NCBI GenBank assembly: GCA_938028975.1 | Contig: CALHES010000009.1 | Location: 32,792-96,791 of the forward strand | Reading direction: 5' to 3' | DNA: 64,000 bases | Origin: an uncultured Clostridia bacterium | GTDB taxonomy: Bacteria > Bacillota > Clostridia > Oscillospirales > Acutalibacteraceae | Part shown: piece after piece, positions 23,503-36,407 of the stretch | How the letters are laid out: the number at the start of each line of letters is the position of its first letter | Position numbering within the stretch: the stretch's first letter is position 1 | Program-made: the position numbers and the translations under genes | The notes under the pieces: model-generated | The model's database searches: none | Told to the model about the DNA's origin: nothing | Seen by the model: the letters and a program-made list of their open reading frames with translations, nothing else

Positions 23503-24246
23503 ATGGCAAACGTAGTTTCAATGAAACAACTTTTAGAAGCAGGTGTTCACTTCGGACACCAAACAAGAAGATGGAACCCTAAAATGGCTGAATACATCTT
23601 CACAGAACGTAACGGCATTTACATCATCGACCTTCAAAAAACAGTTAAGAAGCTTGATGAAGCATATATGTTTGTTCGTGATCTTGCTGCAGAAGGCGGC
23701 TCAATTATTTTCGTAGGTACGAAAAAGCAGGCTCAGGAATCTGTTAAAGAAGAAGCAGAACGTTGCGCAATGCCTTATGTTAACGCTCGTTGGCTTGGCG
23801 GTATGCTTACAAACTTCAAAACAATCCGTGGCCGTGTTGCTCGTCTTGCTCAACTTAAAAAAATGCGTGAAGACGGCACTTTTGACCTTCTTCCTAAAAA
23901 AGAAGTTACAGGTCTTGAACTTGAAATCGAAAAGCTTGAAAAGTATCTCGGCGGTATCACAGAAATGAAAAAAGTTCCGGATGCAATGTTTATCGTTGAC
24001 CCAAGAAAAGAAAGAATTGCTGTTTCAGAAGCAATTAAACTCGGTCTTCCAATCGTTGCTATTGTTGATACAAACTGCGACCCTGATGAAATTGATTACG
24101 TTATTCCGGGTAATGATGACGCTATCCGTGCTGTAAAACTTATTGCAGGCGCAATGGCATCTGCAGTTATCGAAGGCCGTGACGGTCAGGATACAGCAGA
24201 AGAAGCTGCTGCAGAAGCAGAAACAGCAGAAGAAACAGCTGAATAA
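23503..24246 (+). CDS. rpsB: 30S ribosomal protein S2
   Basis: [28 protein letters not shown] canonical S2 N-terminus. Acidic C-terminal tail. AGGAGG RBS. Confidence 0.95.
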
Positions 24247-24290
24247 TTTATATTTATAAATAATAACTATATTGGTTTGGAGGATTAAAA

Positions 24291-25229
24291 ATGGCATTTA
24301 CAGCTCAAGACGTAAAAGCGCTTCGTGAGAAGACAGGCGTTGGTATGATGGAATGTAAAAAGGCTCTTACAGAGGCTGACGGCGATATGGACAAGGCAAT
24401 CGACTTCCTTCGTGAAAGAGGTCTTGCCGCAGCACAAAAGAAAGCAACAAGAATTGCTGCTGAAGGCGTTGTTCTTCCTTATTATGACGAACAGGCTAAA
24501 AAAGGCGTAGTTGTTGAAGTTAACTCTGAAACAGACTTTGTTGCTAAAAACGAAAAGTTTATGAACTTTGTTGAAGGCGTTGCTAAAACAATTCTTGCAA
24601 CAAATCCTGCAGATGTTGACGCTCTTAAAGAAGAAAAGTTTGACGGCACAGACAGAACAGTTACAGAAACTCTTAATGACCTTGTTCTTTCAATCGGTGA
24701 AAATATGAAAATACGCCGTTTTGAAAGAATGGACGGCGTTGTTTCAACATACATTCACGGCGGCGGTTCAGTAGGCGTTATGGTTGGCTTTGATGTTGCA
24801 GACGAATCAAAAGCTGCAACAGCAGAATTTGAAGCAATGGGCAAAAACGTTGCAATGCAAATTGCAGCTATGAACCCATCTTATCTTGACGAAGCATCTG
24901 TTCCTGCAGAAGTTGTTGAACATGAAAAAGGCATTCTTGCAGCACAGATGAAAGAAGACCCTAAAATGGCTTCCAAACCTGAAGCAGTTCTTGCAAAAAT
25001 TGCTGCAGGTAAAATGGGCAAGTATTATAAAGAAAACTGCCTCGTAGATCAAGAATTTGTTCGTTCAGACCTTTTCCAAGGTTCTGTTAAAGGCTATGTA
25101 GATTCAGTTGCTAAAGAACTCGGCACAGAAATTAAACTTAACGGCTTCATCAGAATGATGAAAGGCGACGGCCTTGAAAAGAGAGAAGAAAACTTTGCAG
25201 AAGAAATTGCAAAGCAAATCAACGGTTAA
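24291..25229 (+). CDS. tsf: Elongation factor Ts
   Basis: MAFTAQDVKALREKTGVGMMECKKAL UBA-like N-terminus of EF-Ts. Ends ...IAKQING*. Confidence 0.95.
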   Translation: MAFTAQDVKALREKTGVGMMECKKALTEADGDMDKAIDFLRERGLAAAQKKATRIAAEGVVLPYYDEQAKKGVVVEVNSETDFVAKNEKFMNFVEGVAKTILATNPADVDALKEEKFDGTDRTVTETLNDLVLSIGENMKIRRFERMDGVVSTYIHGGGSVGVMVGFDVADESKAATAEFEAMGKNVAMQIAAMNPSYLDEASVPAEVVEHEKGILAAQMKEDPKMASKPEAVLAKIAAGKMGKYYKENCLVDQEFVRSDLFQGSVKGYVDSVAKELGTEIKLNGFIRMMKGDGLEKREENFAEEIAKQING

Positions 25230-25268
25230 TATTCAAGAGCATCTCAAACGAGATGCTCTTTTTTCTTG
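25209..25268 (+). repeat. Direct repeat copy 1: native tsf 3' end (codons AKQING*) plus terminator
   Basis: gcaaagcaaatcaacggttaa...agagcatctcaaacgagatgctcttttttcttg. Recurs at 26424-26490 with about 5 substitutions and the hairpin loop inverted (aaac to attt). Confidence 0.8.
25236..25266 (+). terminator. Rho-independent terminator of rpsB-tsf
   Basis: agagcatctc-aaac-gagatgctct followed by TTTTTT. Confidence 0.75.
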
Positions 25269-25314
25269 AATGTAGGGTTATTGTGTGATAGTATTACATT
25301 AGGAGGAGATATTT

Positions 25315-25881
25315 ATGTCTGAATATTTTGTTGATTTTGAAAATGTTAATTCAGCCGGAATCAGTGGCATTTCTAAATTAGACCTTAATGAAAACGATGA
25401 TTTTCACATTTTTTATAGTGAAAAAGCAAATTCGATAACAATTGATTTGCATAAAGAATTAGATAAAATTGATGCGAAAGTGAATTTTATTAAAGTAAAG
25501 GTCGGTACAGCCAATGCTTTGGATTTTCAGCTTGCAACATATCTCGGTCATTGTATAGCAGAGAATGGATCCAAAAAATATTTCATTATATCTAATGACA
25601 AGGGATATGATGCGGTTTGCGAATTTTGGAAGGGTAGAAATGTTGTTATAAAAAGAATTGATTCAATTAACTCAATTGACAGAAACAAAGATGAAGTAGC
25701 AAAGGTGCTAACAGGAATAGTCAGCGAAAAAGAAGCACTGAAAGTGTACAATATAATTTGCAATTACAAAACAAAAATGGGCATACATAACAATTTAGTT
25801 AAAGCTTTTCCGGGCAATAACAATAAAAAAGCTTCACAGATTTATAATGCTATAAAACCATTAATCAAGGATAAAAAATAA
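25315..25881 (+). CDS. NYN-domain (PIN-like, LabA/DUF88-type) predicted nuclease with a C-terminal OST-HTH-like extension
   Basis: FVDFENV (D..EN), VKVGTANALDFQLATYLG (G.NA.D) and FIISNDKGYD (S.D..D) match the three NYN acidic motifs. Reads more AT-rich than the flanking core genes. Confidence 0.6.
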   Translation: MSEYFVDFENVNSAGISGISKLDLNENDDFHIFYSEKANSITIDLHKELDKIDAKVNFIKVKVGTANALDFQLATYLGHCIAENGSKKYFIISNDKGYDAVCEFWKGRNVVIKRIDSINSIDRNKDEVAKVLTGIVSEKEALKVYNIICNYKTKMGIHNNLVKAFPGNNNKKASQIYNAIKPLIKDKK

Positions 25882-26112
25882 GTTTTTAAACTGTCAACAG
25901 GATACACATATTTATTACATTATTTTTACGTTTATTATGCAGAATATGAAGCATCGGTTGGCGTGGATGGTGAATTGTTGGTAGGAAGTTTACCGGTTAA
26001 ACAATTAAAATTAGTTCAAGCGTGGGCTGCTATTCACGAAGAAGAATTATATAAGGCATGGAATAAGGCTGTAAGACAAGAACCTTTTGGAAAAATAGAG
26101 CCTTTAAGATAA
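25882..26112 (+). pseudogene. DUF4160 family gene remnant: only the C-terminal ~65 codons, no start codon
   Basis: Translation ...YYAEYEASVGVDGELLVGSLPVKQLKLVQAWAAIHEEELYKAWNKAVRQEPFGKIEPLR* matches the conserved C-terminal half of DUF4160 proteins. The N-terminal ~30 codons (MP...DHxPPHFH) are absent. It lies in the same frame as the NYN gene and directly after its TAA stop. Confidence 0.55.
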
Positions 26113-26129
26113 TTAGAAAGTGTGATTTT

Positions 26130-26423
26130 ATGTATATTTTAGATGGTATTGCTTATGCCGGTAGCAAAACACCTGAATTGAAAGTGTCCGGTGTAAGACC
26201 TATGGATAATTATTTGTTATGGGTTAGATTTAACAACGGCGAAGCAAAAGTGTTTGATTTTAAGCCGATTTTGGAAAAACCGGCTTTTGTTCCGCTAAAA
26301 GACGTTGATGTATTCAAAAGCGTTTATATTGATTATGGTATTCCGGTATGGAATGACGGCGATATTGATATTTCTCCGGAATACCTTTACGAAAACGGAC
26401 AAAATGAAAGAATAACAGCATAA
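26130..26423 (+). CDS. DUF2442 family protein, usual partner of DUF4160 in two-gene modules
   Basis: 97 aa: MYILDGIAYAGSKTPELKVSGVRPMDNYLLWVRFNNGEAKVFDF is the DUF2442 fold signature. Sits immediately 3' of the DUF4160 remnant. Confidence 0.65.
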   Translation: MYILDGIAYAGSKTPELKVSGVRPMDNYLLWVRFNNGEAKVFDFKPILEKPAFVPLKDVDVFKSVYIDYGIPVWNDGDIDISPEYLYENGQNERITA

Positions 26424-26490
26424 TCGCAAAGCAAATCAACGGCTAATTAAACATTTAAGAGCATCTCATTTGAGATGCTCTTTTTTCTTG
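26424..26490 (+). repeat. Direct repeat copy 2: orphan copy of the tsf 3' end (atc gca aag caa atc aac ggc taa = IAKQING*) plus terminator hairpin with an inverted loop
   Basis: atcgcaaagcaaatcaacggctaa...agagcatctcatttgagatgctcttttttcttg. Same last-7-codon string as EF-Ts but not attached to any tsf body. Functions as the terminator for the DUF2442 gene. Confidence 0.8.
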
Positions 26491-26532
26491 CCTGAATTTG
26501 ATATATGTGTTATTATTTGCTTGGGTGGTAAT

Positions 26533-26967
26533 ATGGTAAGAGAAGCAAATATTAACGATTTTGACGGATTAAGCAAATTGTATACTCATTTGCACAATAA
26601 CAAGATTATGCCGAAAACAGAGAATAATGAAAAAATATGGAATGAAATTATTGCAGATAAAAATCATCATATTATTGTGGCAGAGGAAAACGGTGAAATT
26701 GTTTCTTCTTGTGTTTGTGTTATTATTCCAAATCTTACTCATAATCAACAACCTTATGCTTTAATTGAAAATGTTGTTACTCATAAGGACTTCAGAAAGA
26801 AAGGGCTCGCTTCACAATGCCTCTCTTTTGCAAAGCAAATCGCAGTTGAAAATAATTGCTATAAAATGATGTTGCTTACCGGTTCAAAAAAGATGTCCAC
26901 ACATAAATTTTATAGAAAAAACGGTTACAACAGCATAGAAAAAACCGGCTATATTCAACGACTTTGA
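26533..26967 (+). CDS. GNAT family N-acetyltransferase
   Basis: Acetyl-CoA binding motif HKDFRKKGLASQCL (Q/RxxGxG/A-like) and overall ~145 aa GNAT fold. ATG at 26533, not the track's upstream 26470. Confidence 0.75.
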   Translation: MVREANINDFDGLSKLYTHLHNNKIMPKTENNEKIWNEIIADKNHHIIVAEENGEIVSSCVCVIIPNLTHNQQPYALIENVVTHKDFRKKGLASQCLSFAKQIAVENNCYKMMLLTGSKKMSTHKFYRKNGYNSIEKTGYIQRL

Positions 26968-27066
26968 TTTACTTTGTTGTTTAATTATTGTGGGTAATTT
27001 TATTGTCTTGTAAATTTAGTTTATATATGTTAAACTTAATGTGTAATAATGAAATGAGGTTAATTT

Positions 27067-27516
27067 ATGATTTGCAAAAATTGTTCTAACAATATTGATG
27101 ATAATGTTGCTTTTTGCCCATACTGCGGAACTCCTACTAATTCGGCACAAAATAACGGGCAAAACCCAAATGTATATTATAATCCGAATACACAGCAGAG
27201 TAATCAATATAATTCATATAATCAGCAGGGCACACAACAACCGACATATCAGCAGGCTAATATTAACTCTGCACCTGCCAAGGATAAACTTGTTGCAGGA
27301 TTACTTGCTATTTTTCTTGGTTCATTAGGTATTCATAAGTTTTATCTCGGCTATACAAAAAGTGCCGTTATTATGCTTTTAGTGTCGCTTCTTACCTTTG
27401 GTATCGGTGCTTTTGTTATGGAAGTTATCGGCCTTATTGAGGGAATACTTTATTTAACAAAGTCTGATGAAGAATTTTATCAAACTTATGTTCAAAATGA
27501 AAAAGAATGGTTTTAG
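27067..27516 (+). CDS. Zinc-ribbon + TM2-domain membrane protein with a Q/N-rich linker
   Basis: N-terminal CKNC...CPYCG zinc ribbon. ~60-aa N/Q/Y-rich low-complexity segment. C-terminal KLVAGLLAIFLGSLGIHKFYLGYT is the TM2 domain signature. Confidence 0.7.
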   Translation: MICKNCSNNIDDNVAFCPYCGTPTNSAQNNGQNPNVYYNPNTQQSNQYNSYNQQGTQQPTYQQANINSAPAKDKLVAGLLAIFLGSLGIHKFYLGYTKSAVIMLLVSLLTFGIGAFVMEVIGLIEGILYLTKSDEEFYQTYVQNEKEWF

Positions 27517-27540
27517 AAGTAAAAATATTTTCAAAATATA

Positions 27541-27575
27541 AAAAGGCTGAAGAATTTGTTCTTCAGCCTTCTTGT
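27541..27575. terminator. Bidirectional terminator between the converging TM2 gene (+) and ferredoxin-like gene (-)
   Basis: aaaaggctgaagaa-tttg-ttcttcagccttctt. Confidence 0.55.
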
Positions 27576-28282
27576 TATAATTTTTTGCCGTCAACAGAAA
27601 TTGTAACAACTTGCCACGGAATGAACTTTCCGCTTTTTTGAAGTGCAGACTTTGCCGCATTTTCAAGTCTGCCGCAGCAGGGAACTTCCATTCTTATAAT
27701 TGTAACGTTTTTTATATTGTTGGTTTTAATTATAGATTCAAGTTTTTCGCTGTAATCTGTATCGTCAAGTTTCGGGCAGCCGATAATTGTAATTTTACCT
27801 TTCATAAATTCATTGTGTAAATTAGCGTAAGCATAAGCTGTGCAATCTGCCGCAATCAGTAAGTCTGCACCGTCAAAATACGGTGCGTTAACAGGTACAA
27901 GCTTGATTTGGCATGGCCATTGACCCAGTTGTGAAACAGGTGCAACAGTATTGTCAATATTTAAATTACCGCTGTTTTTATTAAAAGTGCGCAAAGCACT
28001 GCCCGGACAACCGTGGTTAATGTGTTGATGAGAAATTTTTTCTTTTTTCTTCATATTTTCTTCAACTGCTTTTTTGTCATATTCTGCAGCTTCACGCTCA
28101 ACAAAAGTAATTGCTCCCGTAGGACATGTCGGCAAACAGTCGCCAAGTCCGTCGCAGTAATCATCACGCAAAAGTTTTGCTTTGCCGTCAACCATGCCTA
28201 TTGCACCCTCATGGCAAGCATTTGCGCATGCACCGCAGCCGTTGCATTTGTCTTCATCTATTTGAATAATTCTTCTAATCAT
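27575..28282 (-). CDS. 2x[4Fe-4S] ferredoxin-domain protein with a second Cys-rich C-terminal domain (hydrogenase/NuoB-small-subunit-like GCP...CC motifs). Function unknown.
   Basis: CNGCGACANAC and CDGLGDCLPTCP dicluster motifs at the N-terminus, then HGCPGS, WPCQ, AADCTAY, IIGCPKLDD and VPCCGRL. Divergently paired with the Crp/Fnr gene. Confidence 0.6.
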   Translation of the reverse strand: MIRRIIQIDEDKCNGCGACANACHEGAIGMVDGKAKLLRDDYCDGLGDCLPTCPTGAITFVEREAAEYDKKAVEENMKKKEKISHQHINHGCPGSALRTFNKNSGNLNIDNTVAPVSQLGQWPCQIKLVPVNAPYFDGADLLIAADCTAYAYANLHNEFMKGKITIIGCPKLDDTDYSEKLESIIKTNNIKNVTIIRMEVPCCGRLENAAKSALQKSGKFIPWQVVTISVDGKKL

Positions 28283-28387
28283 ATTTAAAACTCCTTTTTG
28301 TTTATGTTATTTGCTTGTGTGGCATCATTATAGTATAATTGAGTTGTTAAATATGTTGGAATTGCAACAAAATACGGTGATTTTATA

Positions 28388-29056
28388 ATGAAATATATGG
28401 AAATTTTAAATAATTGTGTGCTTTTTAATGGGTTAACAGAAGATGAAATTAATATGTTTTTTTCAAGTGTAAGCCATGGCATCAGGGCATATAAAAAGGG
28501 TGAGTTTATTATGCATGCCGGTGATAAAACCGAAAGTCTTGGACTTTTACTAAACGGCAGTGCCCTTGTTGTTCAGGAGGATGTTTGGGGAAACAGAAAC
28601 ATTATTACAAATTTAAAATGTTGTGATTTTTTCGGCGAGGTGTTTGCAAGCCTTGGAAATATACCGTTGAATGTAAGCGTGGAAGCAAATGAAGATTGCC
28701 AAGTTTTATTTATAAATATGAGCAGTGTGTTTTCCTCAGATTACTTGTGCAAAAGCAAAATTAATTATAATTTAATTAAAATACTTTCAAGAAAAATTTT
28801 GGTATATAATGACAAAGTAACACATTTGAGTAAGCGAAAAACAAAAGATAAAATTTTATCATACCTTTCTGCCGAATCTGTTAGATGCGGTTCTTTTGAA
28901 TTTGATATTCCTTTCAATCGCCGTGAACTTGCCGATTATTTGTGTGTGGAACGTTCGGCAATGACGGTGGAACTTTTAAATTTACAAAAAGCCGGAATTA
29001 TAAAAATAAATAAAAATCATTTTAAATTGCTTAATGTTAATGCCGACAGGCAGTAA
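28388..29056 (+). CDS. Crp/Fnr-family transcriptional regulator (cNMP-binding domain + C-terminal HTH)
   Basis: cNMP-binding beta-roll (GEFIMHAGDKTESLGLLLNGSALV) and HTH (RRELADYLCVERSAMTVELLNLQKAGII). No N-terminal Cys cluster, so not a classical O2-sensing FNR. Confidence 0.8.
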   Translation: MKYMEILNNCVLFNGLTEDEINMFFSSVSHGIRAYKKGEFIMHAGDKTESLGLLLNGSALVVQEDVWGNRNIITNLKCCDFFGEVFASLGNIPLNVSVEANEDCQVLFINMSSVFSSDYLCKSKINYNLIKILSRKILVYNDKVTHLSKRKTKDKILSYLSAESVRCGSFEFDIPFNRRELADYLCVERSAMTVELLNLQKAGIIKINKNHFKLLNVNADRQ

Positions 29057-29062
29057 AAATAA

Positions 29063-29105
29063 AAGCAGGCTACGGCTGTTTCATTGCCTTAACCTGCTTT
29101 TTCTT
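29063..29105. terminator. Bidirectional terminator between the converging Crp/Fnr gene (+) and PHP phosphatase gene (-)
   Basis: aaagcaggctacggctgtttcattgccttaacctgcttttt: stem aagcagg/cctgctt with a long loop, flanked by A-run and T-run. Confidence 0.4.
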
Positions 29106-29885
29106 TTATTTGTGATTCCAAGGAATTAATTTTACTTCCTTTTGCGGAATTATATTTAATTTTTTCAAATAATCGTTTGCCTTTTTAAGATTTATTTTGT
29201 CATCATAAACGTTTGGATTATGAGCGTCTAAGCCGATAACAACCTCGTTGCCTGTTTTTGCGGCAATTTCCCAAAAGTCTTTGTTAGGATAATTCCTTTT
29301 GTCTGTAAATCCCAAAAAGTTAAATTCAATGGGAATGTCAATTTCATTCAAGGCTGTAATCATTTGTTCCATTTTTGCTTTGTAAATACATTTGTCGCCT
29401 GTAAAATTAATTAAATCAGGGTGTGCAATGTAAGTAAATTCACCGCTTTTTGCCGCTTCGATAACCTGCGAAACATATTTGCAAAGTGTTTCTTCGGAAT
29501 CTGTTTGAGTGCCTGAATATTTGGCATAATCTTCATATTCATTATCAACAAAATGTTGACCCAAAATTATAAAATCATAGTGAAAACTTTTTAAATATTC
29601 CAATTCTTTTTTAATTAATTTTGGGTAGTATTCAACTTCAAATCCTAATTTAATTTCTATTTTATCTTTGTATTTTTCTTTCAGCTTCATCACGCTTGAA
29701 ACATAATCTTTTGTTTTATCAAGTTCCATTCTGAATGTGCTTGTATGACCGTTTGGAAAAATATAAGGTGCGTGGTCGGAAAATCCTATTTCATTATATC
29801 CGTTTTTTATTGCCTTAATAACATATTCTTCGTCGGTACCCTTTGCGTGGTGGCATCTGAATGTGTGGTTGTGATAATTGTACAT
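29106..29885 (-). CDS. PHP-family phosphoesterase (histidinol-phosphatase HisK-like)
   Basis: N-terminal HNHTFRCHHAKG and SDHAPY metal-binding motifs of PHP histidinol phosphatases. 259 aa. The gene abuts the galT stop on the same strand. Confidence 0.75.
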   Translation of the reverse strand: MYNYHNHTFRCHHAKGTDEEYVIKAIKNGYNEIGFSDHAPYIFPNGHTSTFRMELDKTKDYVSSVMKLKEKYKDKIEIKLGFEVEYYPKLIKKELEYLKSFHYDFIILGQHFVDNEYEDYAKYSGTQTDSEETLCKYVSQVIEAAKSGEFTYIAHPDLINFTGDKCIYKAKMEQMITALNEIDIPIEFNFLGFTDKRNYPNKDFWEIAAKTGNEVVIGLDAHNPNVYDDKINLKKANDYLKKLNIIPQKEVKLIPWNHK

Positions 29886-31373
29886 TTATTTAACGCTTTC
29901 AATAAATTTAATAAATCCGGCTTTGCCGTTTTCATCTCTTGAATAAACACCGCATTGCTCTAAAATAGATGCAAAAACAGTGCCTATTTCTTTTTGCAAA
30001 ATTTCGTGGCAGTTATCTGCTGTAATGTCGTATTTATTCATTATCATTTCTGCCCATTCTTTATGGCTTGCAATAGACGGAATTTCGCCGATATCTTTTC
30101 CGTTTACCATAGCGTCCGCCAATTCAGCCATTTCATTTTTAAGTCTGCTTGGCAAAACCGCAAGACCCATAACTTCTATTAATCCTATGTTTTCCTTTTT
30201 AATGTGGTGGTATTCGGGGTGTGGATGATAAAATCCTAACGGGCATTCATCTGTTGTAATGTTATTTCTTAAAACAAGGTCAAATTCAAATTCGCCGTTT
30301 CTCATTCTTGCAATAGGTGTTATTGTGTTGTGCGGCTCATCGTTTGTATTTGCGTAAATGAATGACTCTTCATCTGTGTAGTTGCGCCAAGCGTTAAGAA
30401 TTTTATCTGCTAAATCAACAAGTCTTTCCTTGCTTTTTCCGCTTATTCTTATAACACTCATAGGCCATTTTACTATGCCGGCGCTAACATCTTCAAATCC
30501 GTTAAACGTTACTTTTGTTTCAACAGGTGCTTTTGCCATTGCAAATTCGTAATTGCCGCCTTGAAAATGTTCGTGGGTTAAAATTGAACCGCCTACTATC
30601 GGCAAGTCGGCATTTGAACCTATAAAGTAATGCGGAAATTTTTCAATAAAATCAAGCAGTTTTGCAAATGCACTGCGGTCTATTTTCATCGGTGTGTGTT
30701 CTGCATTAAAAACAATGCAATGTTCGTTGTAATAAACATACGGCGAATATTGAATAAAGAATTTTTCACCGCCCAGTTCTGTAGGAATAATCCTGTGGTT
30801 TTGGCGTGCAGGGTGGTTGATTCTGCCGGCATAACCTTCATTTTCTTTACAAAGCAGGCATTTGGGGTAAGATGTGGTTTTCATTTTTAAAGCCGCTGCA
30901 ATGGCTTTTGGGTCTTTTTCCGGCTTTGAAAGATTTATTGTAATATCAATGTCGCCGTAGTCCGTTTTTGTAATCCATTTAATGTCGTTTTTAATTCTGT
31001 ATCGGCGAATATAATCGCTGTCATTGCTTAATTTATAATAGTAGTCTGTTGCTTCTTTTGGTGAGGATTCGTAACGCTTGTAAAATTCGGAAATAACTTC
31101 GCTTGGCTTTGGAGTAAGCAAACCCATAATTTTTGTATCAAACAAATCACGGTAAACAACACTGTCTTCGCACAGCCCGTTTTGTATTGCAAAATCTAAA
31201 ATTGATGATAAAATTTCCTGCAAGTCGGTGCTTGTTGCTTCACAGTCTTCAAAAGAATCTAAATTTAACGCTTCGCAAATTCTGTTAATTGCCCAAATTT
31301 CATCTTCTTTTTCAATCATTTGGTTTGATATTGCATAGTTTGTTAACGATTTAACGGCTGAATAAATGTTCAT
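29886..31373 (-). CDS. galT: UDP-glucose--hexose-1-phosphate uridylyltransferase (GalT, type 2 / Gram-positive form)
   Basis: ~495 aa. Conserved FENxG.AG...H.H(F)Q-type core (GGSILTHEHFQGG). Size and architecture match family-2 GalT. Confidence 0.8.
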   Translation of the reverse strand: MNIYSAVKSLTNYAISNQMIEKEDEIWAINRICEALNLDSFEDCEATSTDLQEILSSILDFAIQNGLCEDSVVYRDLFDTKIMGLLTPKPSEVISEFYKRYESSPKEATDYYYKLSNDSDYIRRYRIKNDIKWITKTDYGDIDITINLSKPEKDPKAIAAALKMKTTSYPKCLLCKENEGYAGRINHPARQNHRIIPTELGGEKFFIQYSPYVYYNEHCIVFNAEHTPMKIDRSAFAKLLDFIEKFPHYFIGSNADLPIVGGSILTHEHFQGGNYEFAMAKAPVETKVTFNGFEDVSAGIVKWPMSVIRISGKSKERLVDLADKILNAWRNYTDEESFIYANTNDEPHNTITPIARMRNGEFEFDLVLRNNITTDECPLGFYHPHPEYHHIKKENIGLIEVMGLAVLPSRLKNEMAELADAMVNGKDIGEIPSIASHKEWAEMIMNKYDITADNCHEILQKEIGTVFASILEQCGVYSRDENGKAGFIKFIESVK

Positions 31374-31517
31374 GTTTTTTCCTCTTTCCGAAATTTATAT
31401 TTTATATTATAATATTAGGACTTTGTTTTTTCAATATTTAAAACAATATTTGCTCATTTTTATTTGCTTGAAAAAATGTGAATGTTATGTTATCATTGTT
31501 TGGCTGTGCTTTGCACA

Positions 31518-31543
31518 AAATGTTTGCTATAAATGTTTGCTAT
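31518..31543. repeat. Tandem direct repeat 2 x 13 bp (aaatgtttgctat) in the galT / NSS-transporter divergent intergenic region
   Basis: caaaATGTTTGCTATaaATGTTTGCTATaaagg, 10 nt upstream of the transporter RBS/ATG. Candidate operator. Confidence 0.4.
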
Positions 31544-31558
31544 AAAGGATAGTTTATT

Positions 31559-33040
31559 ATGGAAAGAGAAAAGTTTGGCTCAAGGCTTGGGTTTATTTTG
31601 GTTTCAGCAGGCTGTGCCGTGGGAATAGGAAATGTTTGGAAATTTCCTTATATTTGCGGAATGTACGGCGGTGCCGCATTCATTGTAATGTATTTAATAT
31701 TCTTGGTTTTGCTTGGTTTTCCCATTTTGGTTTCTGAATTTGCAGTAGGCAGAGGCAGCCGGTTGGGTATGGGCAGAGCATTTGAAAAGTTAGAACCAAA
31801 GGGTACAAAATGGCATCGTTTAAAATGGATTAGTATTATCGGTTGTTTTCTTTTGATGTCCTTTTACACAATGGTTGCCGGTTGGATGCTTTATTATGCG
31901 TATTTGGAATTAACCGGTAAACTTGCCGGCCTTGATGTTAACGGCGTTGGCGATATGTTTGGCACAATGCTTTCTCAACCTCAAACTATGGGGCTTTGGG
32001 CATTCATTGCTATTGTTATTTCTTTTGGTATTTGCGCTCTCGGTGTGCGAAACGGCGTTGAAAAAGTAACCAAGGTTATGATGAGTTTACTTATAATATT
32101 AATGCTTGCGCTTGCAATTAATTCTGCAACATTGCCAAACGCTGGGGAGGGGTATAAATTCTATCTTGTTCCCGATTTTAAGGCTGTTGCCGGGCAGGGA
32201 TTCGGCACTGCTGTGTTTGCCGCTATGAGCCATGCTTTCTTTACTCTCAGCTTGGGCATAGGCGCTATGGAAATATTCGGCAGTTACCTTGATAAAAAGA
32301 AAAAGCTGGCGGGTGAGGCTGTAAGCGTTATGGTGCTTGATACTTTTGTTGCCTTAACAGCAGGTTTTATTATTATTCCCGCATGCTTCGCTTTTGGTGT
32401 TCAACCCGATTCGGGACCATCTCTTTTGTTTATAACATTGCCTAATTTGTTTAATCAAATGAAAGGCGGCAGAGTTTGGGGAACAATGTTCTTTGTATTT
32501 ATGTCTTTTGCGGCTCTGTCTACAGTTGTTGCTGTTTTTGAGAATTTAATTGCAACATTTATTGATATGAAAGGTTGGAGCAGAAAGAAATCTGTTTTTG
32601 TAAATTTCATAATAGTAACCTTAATTTCGGCACCTGCTGTTTTAGGCTATAATTTGTGGACAAAGGTTCAGCCATTGGGTGCAGGAACAAGTATAATGGA
32701 TTTGGAAGACTTTATAGTTTCTTATAACCTGTTGCCTCTCGGCAGTTTGCTGTTTTTAATGTTTTGCGTTCGTAAAAACGGCTGGGGATTTGAAAACTTT
32801 TTAAAAGAGGCAAATACCGGCACAGGCTTGGAGTTACCCAAGTGGGCAAGAGTTTATATGCAATATGTTTTGCCGTTAATAGTAACCGTTGTTTACCTTA
32901 AAGGTTATTACGATTTCTTTGCAGGTCAGATTTTGGCGGTAAGAATCGGATGGATGATTTTTGCTCTTATTTTATTATTGGCAATTTTCGGCGTTTCCTT
33001 GTTTACCGGTAAAAAATCAATGAAAAAACCTAATAATTAA
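31559..33040 (+). CDS. Sodium-dependent transporter, neurotransmitter:sodium symporter (SNF/NSS) family
   Basis: GFILVSAGCAVGIGNVWKFPY NSS signature. ~12 predicted TM segments. Confidence 0.85.
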   Translation: MEREKFGSRLGFILVSAGCAVGIGNVWKFPYICGMYGGAAFIVMYLIFLVLLGFPILVSEFAVGRGSRLGMGRAFEKLEPKGTKWHRLKWISIIGCFLLMSFYTMVAGWMLYYAYLELTGKLAGLDVNGVGDMFGTMLSQPQTMGLWAFIAIVISFGICALGVRNGVEKVTKVMMSLLIILMLALAINSATLPNAGEGYKFYLVPDFKAVAGQGFGTAVFAAMSHAFFTLSLGIGAMEIFGSYLDKKKKLAGEAVSVMVLDTFVALTAGFIIIPACFAFGVQPDSGPSLLFITLPNLFNQMKGGRVWGTMFFVFMSFAALSTVVAVFENLIATFIDMKGWSRKKSVFVNFIIVTLISAPAVLGYNLWTKVQPLGAGTSIMDLEDFIVSYNLLPLGSLLFLMFCVRKNGWGFENFLKEANTGTGLELPKWARVYMQYVLPLIVTVVYLKGYYDFFAGQILAVRIGWMIFALILLLAIFGVSLFTGKKSMKKPNN

Positions 33041-33048
33041 CTGTTAAT

Positions 33049-33112
33049 GTGGGCGTTTATGGCATTATGTACAAAATTTTATGCATAATTCTGTTAAACG
33101 CCCTTTTTGTTT
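33049..33112 (+). terminator. Probable terminator downstream of the NSS transporter gene
   Basis: gggcgttta...(35-nt loop)...taaacgccc followed by tttttgttttt. The long loop lowers confidence. Confidence 0.35.
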
Positions 33113-33177
33113 TTGTATTTACATTGCCATTTTACTTTGTTATAATTGTTATATAGCAAAATTTGGGAGTAAAAATT

Positions 33178-35508
33178 ATGAAAAAAAGAGTTTTGGCTGT
33201 TTTTTTATCACTTGTAATTTGCATTGGAGCATTTGCGGGTTTCGGTTCAAATGCTGTTTTTGCGGCTTCGGCTACATCGGGCAGCTGCGGCACAGGTGTA
33301 ACATACAGCTATAATAAAGACACAAAGGTTTTAACAATCAGTGGTTCGGGCAGCATTAAGGATTACGGTCAAACAACTCTTAACCATGTTCCTTGGTATG
33401 ATTTTAAAACCGAGTGCGTTAAAGTTGTTATTAATGAGGGTATAACCGGCATAGGCGACAGAGCGTTTTATAATATGTCTGTTTTAACAAGCGTTACATT
33501 GCCGTCAACACTTAAAACAATAAGCGATTATTCGTTTGCCGAATGTCCTTTGCTGAATAATGTTACATTACCGTCAAACCTTCAAACAATTCGTTCATAT
33601 GCGTTTCAAAAATGTACTTCCCTTACTAAAATTGTTATTCCCGACAGTGTAACAAGTTTTGGTAAAACAAGACTGGGTTCTATTGAAACGGGTTATGTTT
33701 TTGCAGATTGCACAAATCTTAAATCGGTTACATTCGGCACAGGTTTGTCTTCAACGGGTAATAGCTGCTTCAGAGACAGCGGCGTTTCAACAGTTACCTT
33801 ATCCGATTCCATAACAGAAATATCAACTTATTCTTTCTTTAATTGTAAAATTCAAACAATAGAATTGCCTCAAAGAGTTGTGAAAATCGGAACCAGGTCA
33901 TTTGCCAATAATGGCTTAATTTCAAAGGTTACGGTTAATAACAGCGAATGCACTTTTGAAGGCTTGATAAATGAGGACCCGTTTAACGGCAGTCAGCAAA
34001 GTTTGGTGTTTTACGGTCATTCACAGTCAACTACACAAACATATGCAAACGAGCATAATTACGGATTTGTGTCATTAGACCCGTGCGCTCATGATAATCT
34101 CAGCGAGGTAATAACATTAGAGCCTACCTGTACCGAAAAAGGCTCTAAAAATATTGTTTGTGATGATTGCGGCGCAGTAGTAAGAACAGAAGAAATTGAC
34201 GCTTTAGGTCATGATTTTAAAACCTTTAATACTGCCGATATGACAGAGGCGGACGGTCATATTTACGAATATCAGGAATGCAGCAGATGCGGACAGGAGA
34301 ATTGCATTTATACACATAATGAATGGGTAGATGGCAATTACGACGAAACATACACGGGAAAATGTACTACGGTTTTGCGTGTAACAAAAACCTGCAAAAT
34401 TTGCGGAAAAACAGACAGTCAGTTTACTACAGGCCATAAAATGGGTAAGGTTACTTCCGAAGTACCGGCAACTTGCACAGAAGCCGGAAGTCAAACCGGA
34501 ACATGTTCAAGATGCGGCGAAACCTTCACGCAGGAGGTTGCGGCTTTGGGTCATAAAAATGTTGTAACTCAATCCTATGATACCGATGACGGACATACTT
34601 ACACTTATTACAAATGCTCTGTTTGCAACGAGGAATCAACCGTTTGCACTCATAATGAATGGGTAGAAGGTTATTACACAGAATTTGAAATTTCGCCTGT
34701 TTCCTGCACTGCAAACGGAACAGTTGAAAGAACATGTACTGTTTGCAAGAAAGTGGAAGATGAAACAATTTTAATGACCGGTCATGATTATGATGAGGGC
34801 GTTGTAACAAAAGAACCGGATTGCACAAACACAGGTACAAAAACACGTACCTGCAAAAATTGCGGCAATACCTTGGATGTTCCTATTGCAAAATTAGGCC
34901 ATAATTATGAAGAATCCGAAGTCTTGAAAGAGCCAACATGCACAAGCGTGGGAACAGGAACAAGAACATGTACACGGTGTGGAGATAAGGTTTCTTACAC
35001 TCTTAACGCATTGGGACATGATATTTCAAATGCACAGGATTATAAGTACATAAAAGAACCTACTTGTATTGATAACGGCACAGCATCAGGCACTTGTGCT
35101 AATTGCGGCGAGGTTGTTGAGGAAACCGTAAATGCTTTGGGTCATGATTTGGATACGGAAAATCAAACGGTTGAAACTGCACCTACCTGCACGGAAAGCG
35201 GCACGGCTACGGTTGTTTGCAAGCGTTGCGGCTCAAACGAAACTGTTATTTTGGATGCATTGGGTCATAACTACACATTTACAAAGAAGAGCGACAGCGG
35301 CGAAACATTTATTTATAACTGCACAAGATGCGGCGGCGAAACGATATATCTTCAAAGAGTTCTTGTGCCTTTGTTTAAACCGAACATTAACAAAAATGTT
35401 GCTGATTTAGATAATGGTTACAGGCTTGATATTAACAAAGACGGCGTTATCAATATGCGTGATTATTCGTTGATTAACGGATATACTCAAATTAAAAGCG
35501 AGAACTAA
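33178..35508 (+). CDS. Secreted BspA-type leucine-rich-repeat protein with >=7 tandem Cys3-His mini-domains and a C-terminal type I dockerin
   Basis: Signal peptide MKKRVLAVFLSLVICIGAFAGFGSNAVFA. LRR units (ITxIGxxAFxxCxxLTSVTLPSxL). Repeats of [E/A]PTCTxxGxxxxxCxxCGxxxxxxxxALGHxY. C-terminal DINKDGVINMRDYSLINGY is a dockerin Ca-binding loop. Confidence 0.75.
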   Translation: MKKRVLAVFLSLVICIGAFAGFGSNAVFAASATSGSCGTGVTYSYNKDTKVLTISGSGSIKDYGQTTLNHVPWYDFKTECVKVVINEGITGIGDRAFYNMSVLTSVTLPSTLKTISDYSFAECPLLNNVTLPSNLQTIRSYAFQKCTSLTKIVIPDSVTSFGKTRLGSIETGYVFADCTNLKSVTFGTGLSSTGNSCFRDSGVSTVTLSDSITEISTYSFFNCKIQTIELPQRVVKIGTRSFANNGLISKVTVNNSECTFEGLINEDPFNGSQQSLVFYGHSQSTTQTYANEHNYGFVSLDPCAHDNLSEVITLEPTCTEKGSKNIVCDDCGAVVRTEEIDALGHDFKTFNTADMTEADGHIYEYQECSRCGQENCIYTHNEWVDGNYDETYTGKCTTVLRVTKTCKICGKTDSQFTTGHKMGKVTSEVPATCTEAGSQTGTCSRCGETFTQEVAALGHKNVVTQSYDTDDGHTYTYYKCSVCNEESTVCTHNEWVEGYYTEFEISPVSCTANGTVERTCTVCKKVEDETILMTGHDYDEGVVTKEPDCTNTGTKTRTCKNCGNTLDVPIAKLGHNYEESEVLKEPTCTSVGTGTRTCTRCGDKVSYTLNALGHDISNAQDYKYIKEPTCIDNGTASGTCANCGEVVEETVNALGHDLDTENQTVETAPTCTESGTATVVCKRCGSNETVILDALGHNYTFTKKSDSGETFIYNCTRCGGETIYLQRVLVPLFKPNINKNVADLDNGYRLDINKDGVINMRDYSLINGYTQIKSEN

Positions 35509-35693
35509 ATAAAATATTTTGGGCATACGGCATAAAGGTGTTTAATTATTCTTTAAGCGGTGTGCCCTTGTTTTTTTATCGGTATCTTTAACAAATATCG
35601 ACTGTTAAATTTAGGGAGTTTTTTCATCTTAAACTATTTACTTTAAACTTAATTTATATTATTATATATAATATAAAAAAACGGAGGTCTGAT

Positions 35694-36407
35694 ATGAGCA
35701 CTCAATATAAACGCATTTTGTTAAAATTAAGCGGAGAGGTTCTTGCCGGTTCAAAGGGAACAGGCATTGATAATGAAACAGTTGTAAAAATTTGTAAATC
35801 AGTTAAAAAAGTTGCCGATTTAGGAGTTCAGGTTGGCATTGTAGTCGGCGGCGGAAACTTTTGGCGCGGCAGAACAAGCGAGGGTATGGACCGTGCAAGG
35901 GCAGACCATATCGGCATGCTTGCAACGGCAATGAATTCACTTGCACTTTGCGATGCACTTGAGCAGCTTGGCGCAGATGTAAGAGTTCAAACAGCTATTG
36001 AAATGAGGCAAATTGCCGAACCGTACATCAGAAATAAAGCAATTCGTCATTTTGAAAAAGGCAGAATTGTTATTTTCGGTTGCGGCACAGGTTCACCTTT
36101 CTTTTCAACAGACACTGCTGCCGCTCTTCGCAGCGTTGAAATTAATGCAGATGCTTTGCTTAAAGCAACTAATGTTGACGGCGTTTATGATAAAGACCCG
36201 AATAAATATGACGATGCGGTTAAGTTTGATACCGTTTCATTTAAAGAAGTTATTAACAGAGATTTAAAGGTTATGGATTCAACCGCATTTTCACTTTGTA
36301 AAGATAACGATATGTCAATCGTTGTGTTTAACCTTGAGGAAGACCCTGAAAATGTTGTTAAAGCCGTTATGGGCGAACCTATCGGTACAGTTGTAAGTAA
36401 TAATTAA
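35694..36407 (+). CDS. pyrH: Uridylate kinase
   Basis: [11 protein letters not shown]...[12 protein letters not shown] canonical UMP kinase. Confidence 0.95.

Follow-up and report, generated by a model that had tools for sequence, protein, structure and literature searches.

The tsf end and the segment between its two copies

The 64,000 nt of DNA analysed here (the window) belong to an uncultured Clostridia bacterium and carry, at 24291..25229 on the plus strand, the gene tsf for EF-Ts (312 aa; Pfam EF_TS 6e-63), the product of which is identical in conspecific contigs. The end of tsf and the terminator behind it are present a second time downstream, and the segment between the two copies, considered here as a cassette inserted at the tsf end, is the subject of this study. 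The duplication had been pointed out in a first-pass annotation, and it is borne out by alignment, repeat search, and shuffles. Copy 1 occupies 25205-25268 and copy 2 occupies 26422-26490, and 58 of the 64 aligned bases are identical (MAFFT alignment and repeat search). The copies differ by six substitutions, namely ATT/ATC, GGT/GGC, C/T ahead of the stem, and three loop bases (AAAC versus ATTT), and by one 5-nt indel that comes directly behind the stop codon. As the annotation had it, the two hairpins share one stem sequence and differ in the loop.

Copy 1 consists of the codons ATT GCA AAG CAA ATC AAC GGT TAA (IAKQING*), followed by a hairpin at 25235-25260 and a T-tract. Within the repeat (64 nt in copy 1, 69 nt in copy 2) sits an identical core of 17 bp, GCAAAGCAAATCAACGG, found at 25209..25225 and at 26426..26442, on the plus strand in both cases; these are referred to below as the attL and attR cores, respectively. 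When the 64-kb window is searched with the coding part and with the hairpin part, each is found exactly two times and no third copy turns up; 100 dinucleotide shuffles give a chance expectation of 0.00. The fold energies are -19.8 kcal/mol (z = -6.2) for the copy 1 hairpin and -17.2 kcal/mol (z = -4.9) for the copy 2 hairpin, and both are called terminator-like by a terminator scan.

Three genes lie between the cores, all on the plus strand. The first (25315..25881), preceded by a good ribosome-binding site, encodes a PIN7-domain protein of 188 aa (PF18475, 3e-28), which is PIN-like and not strictly of the NYN type to which it had been assigned. The second (25882..26112) is a remnant of a DUF4160 (DhiT-type toxin) gene that matches positions 17-65 of the 65 in PF13711, lacks a start codon and about the first 16 profile positions, and follows in frame right after the PIN7 stop; its score against the NCBIfam model toxin_DhiT is 40 bits, under the cut-off of 100. 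The third (26130..26423) is an intact DUF2442 gene of the DhiA-type antitoxin family (PF10387, 2.7e-12), the stop codon of which is 2 nt from the attR core. The decapitated state of the second gene and the intactness of the third had been recognized correctly in the first-pass annotation. DUF4160 and DUF2442 make up the dhiTA toxin-antitoxin pair, in which the toxin gene comes first (PMC8198452). Here the toxin is without its N-terminus and start while the antitoxin-family gene is intact, because, with the toxin gene in first position, the fusion or deletion took the toxin start and left the gene behind it.

None of the three genes is matched by PADLOC as part of a defence system, the PIN7 protein has no PADLOC or NCBIfam match, and the cassette DNA has no match among annotated plasmids and phages. 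A protein-domain search finds no recombinase between the copies, in agreement with the earlier description.

Two modules are combined in the cassette as a mosaic. Starting at the core and up to about 25877, it matches at 98.95% identity (blastn) a 700-bp cassette with PIN7 as its only gene in the conspecific contig L091 (contigs are cited by their L numbers). From the PIN7 stop onward the two diverge, L091 running into ...AAAAACTTC|core and the window into the beheaded DUF4160 gene. The joint, placed at 25875..25881 by blastn and by alignment against L091, fuses the first 669 bp of the PIN7 cassette, at the PIN7 stop, to the right part of a dhiT/dhiA module. The junction 'DUF2442 stop-TC|core' is also found in 90%-identical relatives (L120-L129) that belong to another EF-Ts clade, where a decayed core, (T/A)CATAGCAAATAAACAG, and then CrtO follow; the junction is, as read from this comparison, an old one. 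The left module also has a counterpart elsewhere: in the short contig L104 (1-435) an identical PIN7 protein of 188 aa is encoded, but the DNA upstream, up to a joint at the ribosome-binding site, is of a wholly different and GC-richer kind. The PIN7 gene therefore exists outside the tsf cassette context as well.

Empty sites and the point of exchange

Contigs for comparison were retrieved by exact-protein look-ups of EF-Ts and of the products of the next genes, GNAT and TM2, and cassette-bearing contigs by look-ups of the exact PIN7 and DUF2442 proteins. A single-copy empty site, which the first-pass annotation had named as the mark of an insertion, is present in about 15 conspecific contigs from different samples (L081-083, L088-090, L092, L093, L095-098, L131, L138, and L139). 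In these, tsf leads into the terminator with the ATTT loop and then into the GNAT gene, the junction being ...GAAATT GCAAAGCAAATCAACGG CTAATTAAACATTT-hairpin(ATTT loop)-...GNAT, that is, ATT-core-CTAATTAAAC. Rightward from the core they are identical to copy 2 of the window, and the empty site of L081 (6915-6983) aligns to both window copies. The window and the empty-site contigs are 99.7% identical on both sides, and the sole difference is a clean gap of 1217 bp.

Because tsf in the empty sites runs straight into the copy 2 sequence, it is the downstream terminator that originally belonged to tsf. What the insert brought in is the GGT-TAA attached to tsf, the AAAC-loop terminator, and everything up to ...CATAATC. 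The assignment of the tsf-attached copy as imported and of the downstream copy as native, like the mosaic build of the cassette, refines the earlier description. The imported tsf end (25226..25268, plus strand) comprises the last base of the Gly codon, TAA, and an intrinsic terminator with its stem at 25235-25260, AAAC loop, and T-tract, and the same sequence forms the left end of the cassette in L101, L102, L103, and L091. The native remnant (26443..26490, plus strand) comprises the original stop and the terminator with its stem at 26457-26482 and ATTT loop, and is identical to the sequence behind tsf in the empty-site contigs. Outside the insert, the GNAT acetyltransferase gene (26533..26967, plus strand; Pfam), which directly follows tsf in the empty-site strains, marks the right flank.

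The polymorphisms that flank the cores are reciprocal: the left junction reads ATT (native)|core|GGT (imported), and the right junction reads ATC (imported)|core|GGC (native), with C-TAA-TTAAAC on its native side. Since the differences are reciprocal, both exchanges took place inside the 17-bp core, and the insert therefore measures 1217 bp. In L094 donor-type single-nucleotide polymorphisms (SNPs) lie within the core and the codon just upstream is native, and the overlap region may be mapped roughly to core positions 4 to 12. Reciprocal flanks of this kind are the signature of conservative site-specific recombination in which an attB at the tsf end is paired with an attP carried by the incoming DNA. 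The EF-Ts protein is unchanged by the insertion (the same 312 aa as in the empty-site strains); the frame stays intact because the insert supplies a stop codon and the change of the last codon from GGC to GGT is synonymous. A direct repeat, an intact target gene, and an unoccupied attB in relatives are thus all found, as expected of attL and attR sites, while an integrase gene beside the att site is absent from the window cassette. The proposal of an attL/attR-like integration into the 3' end of a protein gene, with a replacement gene end, is thereby supported.

These observations bear on the simplest alternative, in which the repeat arose by local duplication or slippage, or is a chance likeness of terminators, and the genes were inserted later; in a variant, a class C group II intron or an insertion sequence was targeted to the terminator. 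The terminators of the clade do resemble one another. However, the coding match of 21 nt has a chance expectation of 0.00 (the annotation had likewise set a coding match, of 24 nt by its count, against coincidence); empty sites exist; the native sequence is the downstream copy and not the one attached to tsf; and the identical cassette occurs in another genome context (see below). As for the variant, which had been raised in the first-pass annotation, the exchange point lies upstream of the terminator in coding sequence and not behind the terminator, the region around the insert has no intron RNA, tRNA, reverse transcriptase, or transposase, and no Rfam family reaches its threshold in 24000-28000. 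Chance similarity, local duplication, and terminator-targeted insertion are accordingly rejected, the empty sites, the coding match, and the position of the crossover leaving them next to no probability.

The sequences behind the two cores permit some further observations. The stem of the tsf terminator, AAGAGCATCTC/GAGATGCTCTT, is common to many species (terminators of L001-L081), and the 4-nt loop varies (AAAC, GTTT, GAAA, ATTT, AAAA, and GATT). The loops AAAC and GTTT are exact reverse complements, and the two loops of the window (AAAC at 25246-25249, ATTT at 26468-26471) are one base short of such a flip. With a stem that is perfectly palindromic, the AAAC/GTTT pair looks like the outcome of a flip of the entire hairpin. 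Past the terminators, 25269-25314 and 26491-26532 are weakly alike (about half of the positions) and share one layout, with TTGnnT, 17 nt, TGTGnTAnTAT, and GG.GG before the start codon. A candidate cassette promoter (TTGAAT, 17 nt, TGnTAGTAT; 25266..25294, plus strand) may be read from the sequence; it is weak, agreeing at 8 of 12 positions and falling under the scan threshold, and overlaps the end of the terminator T-tract. Its native counterpart (TTGCCT, 17 nt, TATTAT; 26488-26516, plus strand) is called by the promoter scan. The left ends of the cassettes thus seem to mimic the native promoter region 3' of tsf. In the same part of the native flank (26470-26532), gene callers start GNAT at a TTG inside the tsf terminator hairpin (165 aa), and the form of 144 aa that starts at the ATG at 26533 behind GGGTGG, called in L085 and L139, is more plausible.

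The cassette in other genomes and the recombinases at the site

The same cassette, core to core and 99.2-99.8% identical over all 1234 bp, is present in L101, L102, L103, L108, L109, and L111, where the genes downstream are CrtO-GntR-ABC and not GNAT, so that the genome background is a different one and the cassette is shared by two species. In L109 it stands directly after a different tsf allele (...GAGGAAATC GCAAAGCAGATAAACGG). In L101, L102, L107, and L108 it stands directly after the right arm of an integrase element, ...GAAAAACTTC|core, reading ...CTTTCAGCGAAAAACTTC|core, and the integrase of 428 aa ends about 100 bp left of the core in these four contigs. The first-pass annotation had suggested either a decayed remnant or a recombinase acting in trans, and this frame is the right one, since an integrase of the cognate type and its excisionase lie directly left of the identical cassette in other contigs.

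The integrase (Int; L101 3024-4310) has the domains Phage_integrase (PF00589, 8e-26) and Phage_int_SAM_3 (PF14659), and directly upstream of it a protein of 62 aa (Xis; L101 2708-2896) belongs to the Tn916-Xis family (PF09035, 30 bits versus a cut-off of 22.9). The closest solved structures are the 'Int protein' chains 6EN0, 6EMY, and 6EMZ (E = 4e-23), which we take to be Tn1549 Int; the N-terminal Tn916 DNA-binding domain is matched with 16.5 bits, short of the threshold of 27 bits. With its catalytic domain and the Xis gene upstream, the associated element in these contigs conforms to the Int-Xis module of the Tn916/Tn1549 type. The interval of about 105 bp between the integrase stop and the core contains three direct GTTGCGTAAA repeats, which look like arm-type binding sites.

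The integrase element has an empty site of its own, its right arm meeting the core exactly where tsf does (L120 empty versus L126, L128, and L129 occupied). To the right of this element, the copies of which are 99.7% identical over 4 kb, stand three different neighbours, namely the PIN7 cassette (L101), a HAD'-DUF2442 segment (L128), and the start of another large element (L112), and the element therefore moves independently of the cassette. Homologues that are 67-74% identical (P0003 and P0004) lie 58-170 bp left of a tsf-type core and are followed by small cassettes and then by LRR_5-pyrH-frr, a neighbourhood that the window likewise has downstream of tsf. Low target specificity is not seen in this small sample of contigs reached via the tsf locus, in which a tsf-type core adjoins each of the copies examined. 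No relatives of the integrase are found in viral contigs. On the left side, contigs with its closest homologues P0001, P0003, and P0004 either break or run on without tsf, and the left part of L128 shares nothing with the left ends of L112, L012, or L084.

The core is used by many other units. In the same species it is followed by the 700-bp PIN7-only cassette (L091 and L094), by a 1.07-kb transglutaminase-like cassette and then the start of a large element (L087), by a large element that opens with ParA, ParB, and a SpaA/TQ surface protein of 1263 aa (L084 and L086), and by the right end of a further element type, ...GAAATCTTTTTT|GCATTTCAAATCAACGG (L099 and L100). Look-ups with GNAT and TM2, aimed at the ParA/ParB/SpaA element's right end, gave only empty sites and short contigs. 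Among the species-representative genomes retrieved, the IAKQING tail is shared by 47; of these, 16 have an exact 17-nt core and 39 a core with at most two mismatches. In at least four genomes of other species (L004, L008, L016, and L017), between two and four tsf-type cores stand in tandem, all within 6 kb, and the cargo there includes genes for NUDIX, HAD, transglutaminase-like, and hexapeptide acetyltransferase proteins as well as a Phd/ParE pair; in L007 a nucleotidyltransferase/HEPN-like pair stands before a degenerate core. The units range from 0.7 to 2.4 kb and are stacked up to three deep, all cassette genes are co-oriented with tsf, and the cassettes occur in varying orders with varying neighbours. 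The transglutaminase cassette is 97-98% identical in L087, L004, and L008, the tsf genes of which are 83-85% identical to that of the window, a sign of horizontal movement, and it retains the full right arm of the integrase element with its three repeats.

These data make it possible to weigh a replacement by longer foreign DNA, in which RecA-dependent recombination took place within tsf on the left and within the repeated tsf end and terminator on the right, with no site-specific recombinase involved. Some homology for such an event exists, tsf being conserved and the copies sharing 64 nt at 91% identity, and spread of the occupied allele within the species by this kind of recombination is to be expected. 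However, the crossovers fall within a few bases of the 17-bp core, and tsf of the window, which is 99.9% identical to that of the conspecific L087 versus 83-85% for other species, contains no donor SNPs. Moreover, the homology between donor and recipient on the right (CrtO versus GNAT contexts) amounts to the core and a diverged terminator, every unrelated cassette ends on the same core, and the integrase arm abuts this core as well. Homologous replacement is therefore very unlikely to be the origin of the structure, and may well be a route of its spread within the species.

A second recombinase, unrelated to the first, also adjoins the site. It is an Xer-like protein of 301 aa without an arm-binding domain (PF00589, 6e-42; PF02899), encoded on the minus strand right after tsf in L012 (7181-8086), and the distant L041 (7361-7474), the EF-Ts of which is only 63% identical, has its final 38 residues at 100% identity. 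This enzyme, or one of the host, might excise segments flanked by cores as circles and reinsert them at other cores, through the cores alone, in which case the Int element would be just another tenant of the site. Such shuffling would account for the identical boundaries of a cassette without arms in two species, for the variation in order and neighbours, and for the uniform orientation of the cassette genes, and an Xer-like enzyme of the required simplicity is found next to tsf in L012 and, by its C-terminus, in L041. On the other hand, no direct link ties this enzyme to any of the small cassettes, and several cassettes retain the complete Int right arm of about 105 bp with its three repeats, which fits decay from an Int element better. 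A likeness to integron shuffling is not borne out either: the NCBIfam integron-integrase models stay far under their cut-offs for Int, and the cassettes end in ordinary perfect-stem terminators that differ from one another and not in attC-like imperfect hairpins. Shuffling through the cores alone thus has only a small chance of being the correct explanation.

Two side observations concern the arms and ends. In L012 (7073-8086) four TTTGCGTAAA-like repeats lie between tsf and the Xer-like gene, and their motif is that of the right arm of the 428-aa integrase element. A second family of right ends, ...AAGCCGAATTTGAAATCTTTTTT|GCA(A/T)(A/T)(G/T)CA..., abuts the tsf core in three species (L016 8855; L115 4231; L099 279; L100 203); its unit in L016 carries the Phd/ParE pair, and no recombinase is linked to this family in the contigs examined.

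The best explanation, to which we assign a probability of about 80%, is site-specific integration of an integrase-less cassette at an attB in tsf. The 1217 bp between the cores would be a non-autonomous integrative cassette, and the attB would consist of the last tsf codons. The site would be used by an element family of this clade of gut Clostridia that has a Tn916/Tn1549-type tyrosine integrase and a Tn916-type excisionase near its right end, with recombination within GCAAAGCA(A/G)AT(C/T/A)AA(C/T)GG. On its left side, each incoming unit would bring along an extra tsf stop together with a terminator and a promoter-like stretch, and transcription of the cassette itself would end at the native terminator that it has displaced. 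Because of the imported stop and terminator on one side and the displaced native terminator on the other, the insertion would be neutral for tsf and the cassette a self-contained transcription unit.

We infer that an integrase of the Tn916-type family catalysed the event, and the order of events may have been as follows. The cassette would first have been assembled by deletion within a tandem array, then carried between species beside, or by, an integrase-bearing neighbour, and would finally have stayed when the neighbour excised, unless this neighbour was never present in the window strain. Alternatively, the window cassette may have recombined, at low efficiency, through its cores alone. The junction predicted for a cassette circle is ...ACAGCATAATC-GCAAAGCAAATCAACGG-TTAATATTCAAGAGC..., and the right ends of elements and cassettes may be recognized by AAAAACTTCGCAAAGCA and GAAATCTTTTTTGCA. 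The contig L105, considered as an excised circle since its 1217 bp equal the cassette length, was rejected; its ends do not overlap, and the contig is broken at the repeat.

Several points weigh against integration of this kind. A tblastn search with both recombinase types finds no recombinase anywhere in the 64-kb window. The window cassette has no GTTGCGTAAA repeat on either side, whereas other integrase-less cassettes retain the three repeats, and its excision by an arm-dependent integrase is doubtful for this reason. None of the contigs examined contains tsf together with both ends of the integrase element, so that its left junction and extent are unseen, and neither an excised circle nor an attP junction is observed among them. 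Finally, after a single integration the cassette-bearing allele could have spread within the species by homologous recombination.

It is conceivable, though in our estimate rather unlikely, that the last tsf codons serve as a gene-capture platform, at which recombinase-less units of 0.7-2.4 kb, each with its own terminator, promoter, and cargo (in many cases genes of toxin-antitoxin or nuclease-like type), are exchanged between species independently by recombinases that act in trans and need little beyond the 17-bp core. If so, the site would be a double-stranded, gene-end analogue of the integron and not mere debris left by ICEs (integrative and conjugative elements) or IMEs (integrative and mobilizable elements).

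Surroundings of the insert and relation to known systems

Between tsf and pyrH (25229-35694) the window holds genes for GNAT, TM2, a ferredoxin-like protein, a Crp-family regulator, PHP, GalT, an SNF transporter, and LRR_5. The first-pass annotation had spoken of a tsf-pyrH junction; pyrH, however, is not the next gene and lies about 10 kb downstream, at 35694. The whole interval is variable, because related species hold different sets of small genes before LRR_5-pyrH-frr. A second insertion polymorphism is seen in the conspecific assembly GCA_965314785.1 (L085 7460-11480), where about 4 kb, encoding an S8 peptidase/LRR_5 protein of 1059 aa and two small open reading frames, lie between GNAT and TM2 (window spacer 26968-27066) and the tsf site is empty. 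Further downstream in the window, a hairpin with a 15-bp stem at 27540-27573, between the convergent TM2 and ferredoxin-like genes, scores as a terminator on both strands and explains weak matches to small-RNA models in the Rfam scan. On the other side of tsf, an Ala/Glu-rich tail is encoded at the 3' end of rpsB (24201-24247) by three or four copies of a AGAAGCAGAAAC-like repeat with a period of 12 nt.

With the above results, tsf is identified as an attachment site in uncultured gut Clostridia, one that generates strain-level variation beside an essential, highly expressed gene. It serves at least two types of recombinase and many small units of cargo; among these units, at least the PIN7-dhiA and the transglutaminase cassette are nearly the same from one species to another. 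In annotation, the orphan tsf tail is explained, and it is seen that a terminator attached to tsf can be foreign. For the biology of mobile elements, the 17-bp core, the 105-bp arm with three repeats, and the Int-Xis pair form a compact natural system for asking how recombinase-less units move.

Integration into gene 3' ends, decay to cis-mobilizable elements (CIMEs), and tandem accretion are already well described (PMC4701971, PMC5704250). tsf is not among the targets listed in these two papers, and a pairing of the end of tsf with an integrase was not found in the literature searched, which is weak evidence of absence.

In streptococcal ICEs and IMEs, tyrosine integrases are specific for the 3' ends of rplL, rpsI, rpmG, lysS, and guaA, and the elements are flanked by direct repeats, 12-54 bp long, that include the exact end of the gene (PMC4701971). 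The tsf system resembles these in that the target is the 3' end of a conserved translation-related gene, which is restored by the element. It differs in that the imported and the native end stay alike over 64 nt, up to and including the terminator, and past it resemble each other more weakly in a promoter-like way, and in that no conjugation or relaxase genes are linked to the window cassette. In the case of the ssrA-specific islands of Dehalococcoides, many different islands likewise use one conserved single-copy gene end, an integration module by the site is carried by only some of them, and they are a major source of strain-level diversity (PMC3146451). Their target, however, is the tmRNA gene and their size about 12 kb, and the likeness drawn here is one of site use.

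The associated integrase element shares with the Tn916/Tn1549 module an excisionase of the Tn916-Xis family upstream of a tyrosine integrase at the element end, and arm direct repeats that resemble arm-type binding sites. Tn916 and Tn1549 insert at many AT-rich targets, whereas in the loci examined the tsf-associated integrase family occurs nowhere but at the tsf core. Chromosomal integron arrays are similar in consisting of small, co-oriented, recombinase-less units rich in toxin-antitoxin genes, which share one platform and recur in different arrays. In contrast to integrons, neither an IntI-type integrase with attI nor attC is seen. Int scores 64.5 and 29.7 bits where the NCBIfam cut-offs are 265 and 435, the window has no gene of this kind, and the cassette ends are the tsf core and perfect-stem terminators in place of imperfect hairpins with conserved R/L boxes. 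The units also carry their own terminator and a probable promoter, and the repeated site is a double-stranded gene end.

ICESt1 of Streptococcus thermophilus has the 3' end of fda as its target. The CIMEs related to ICESt1 and ICESt3, for which a definition and a three-step model of accretion are available (PMC5704250), share with the window cassette attL/attR direct repeats derived from the 3' end of a housekeeping gene, the loss or lack of integration and transfer genes, a history of mosaicism and deletion, and tandem arrangement with an integrase-bearing element that uses the same site. Only the PIN7 gene, the DUF4160 remnant, and the DUF2442 gene are present and both cores are intact, as in a CIME. 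With regard to decay from an ICE or IME, the scars of deletion and mosaic assembly are present, but no integrase, relaxase, or integrase-arm remnant is left in the window cassette, while in the sister cassettes of L087, L004, and L008 the Int right arm is complete. Int element and cassette stand in tandem in L101, L102, and L108, where the outer right site is without arm repeats; sequencing runs that contain both are SRR35550835, SRR24140652, and SRR35550772. The differences from the streptococcal CIMEs are that the target is tsf, the units measure 0.7-2.4 kb, the host is an uncultured gut Clostridia lineage, and the window unit keeps no arm sites, so that cis-mobilization is putative. Therefore, we think that the closest known kind is a decayed CIME in tandem accretion, and that the window unit, because it has no arm repeats, may be read as a stranded remnant of this type.

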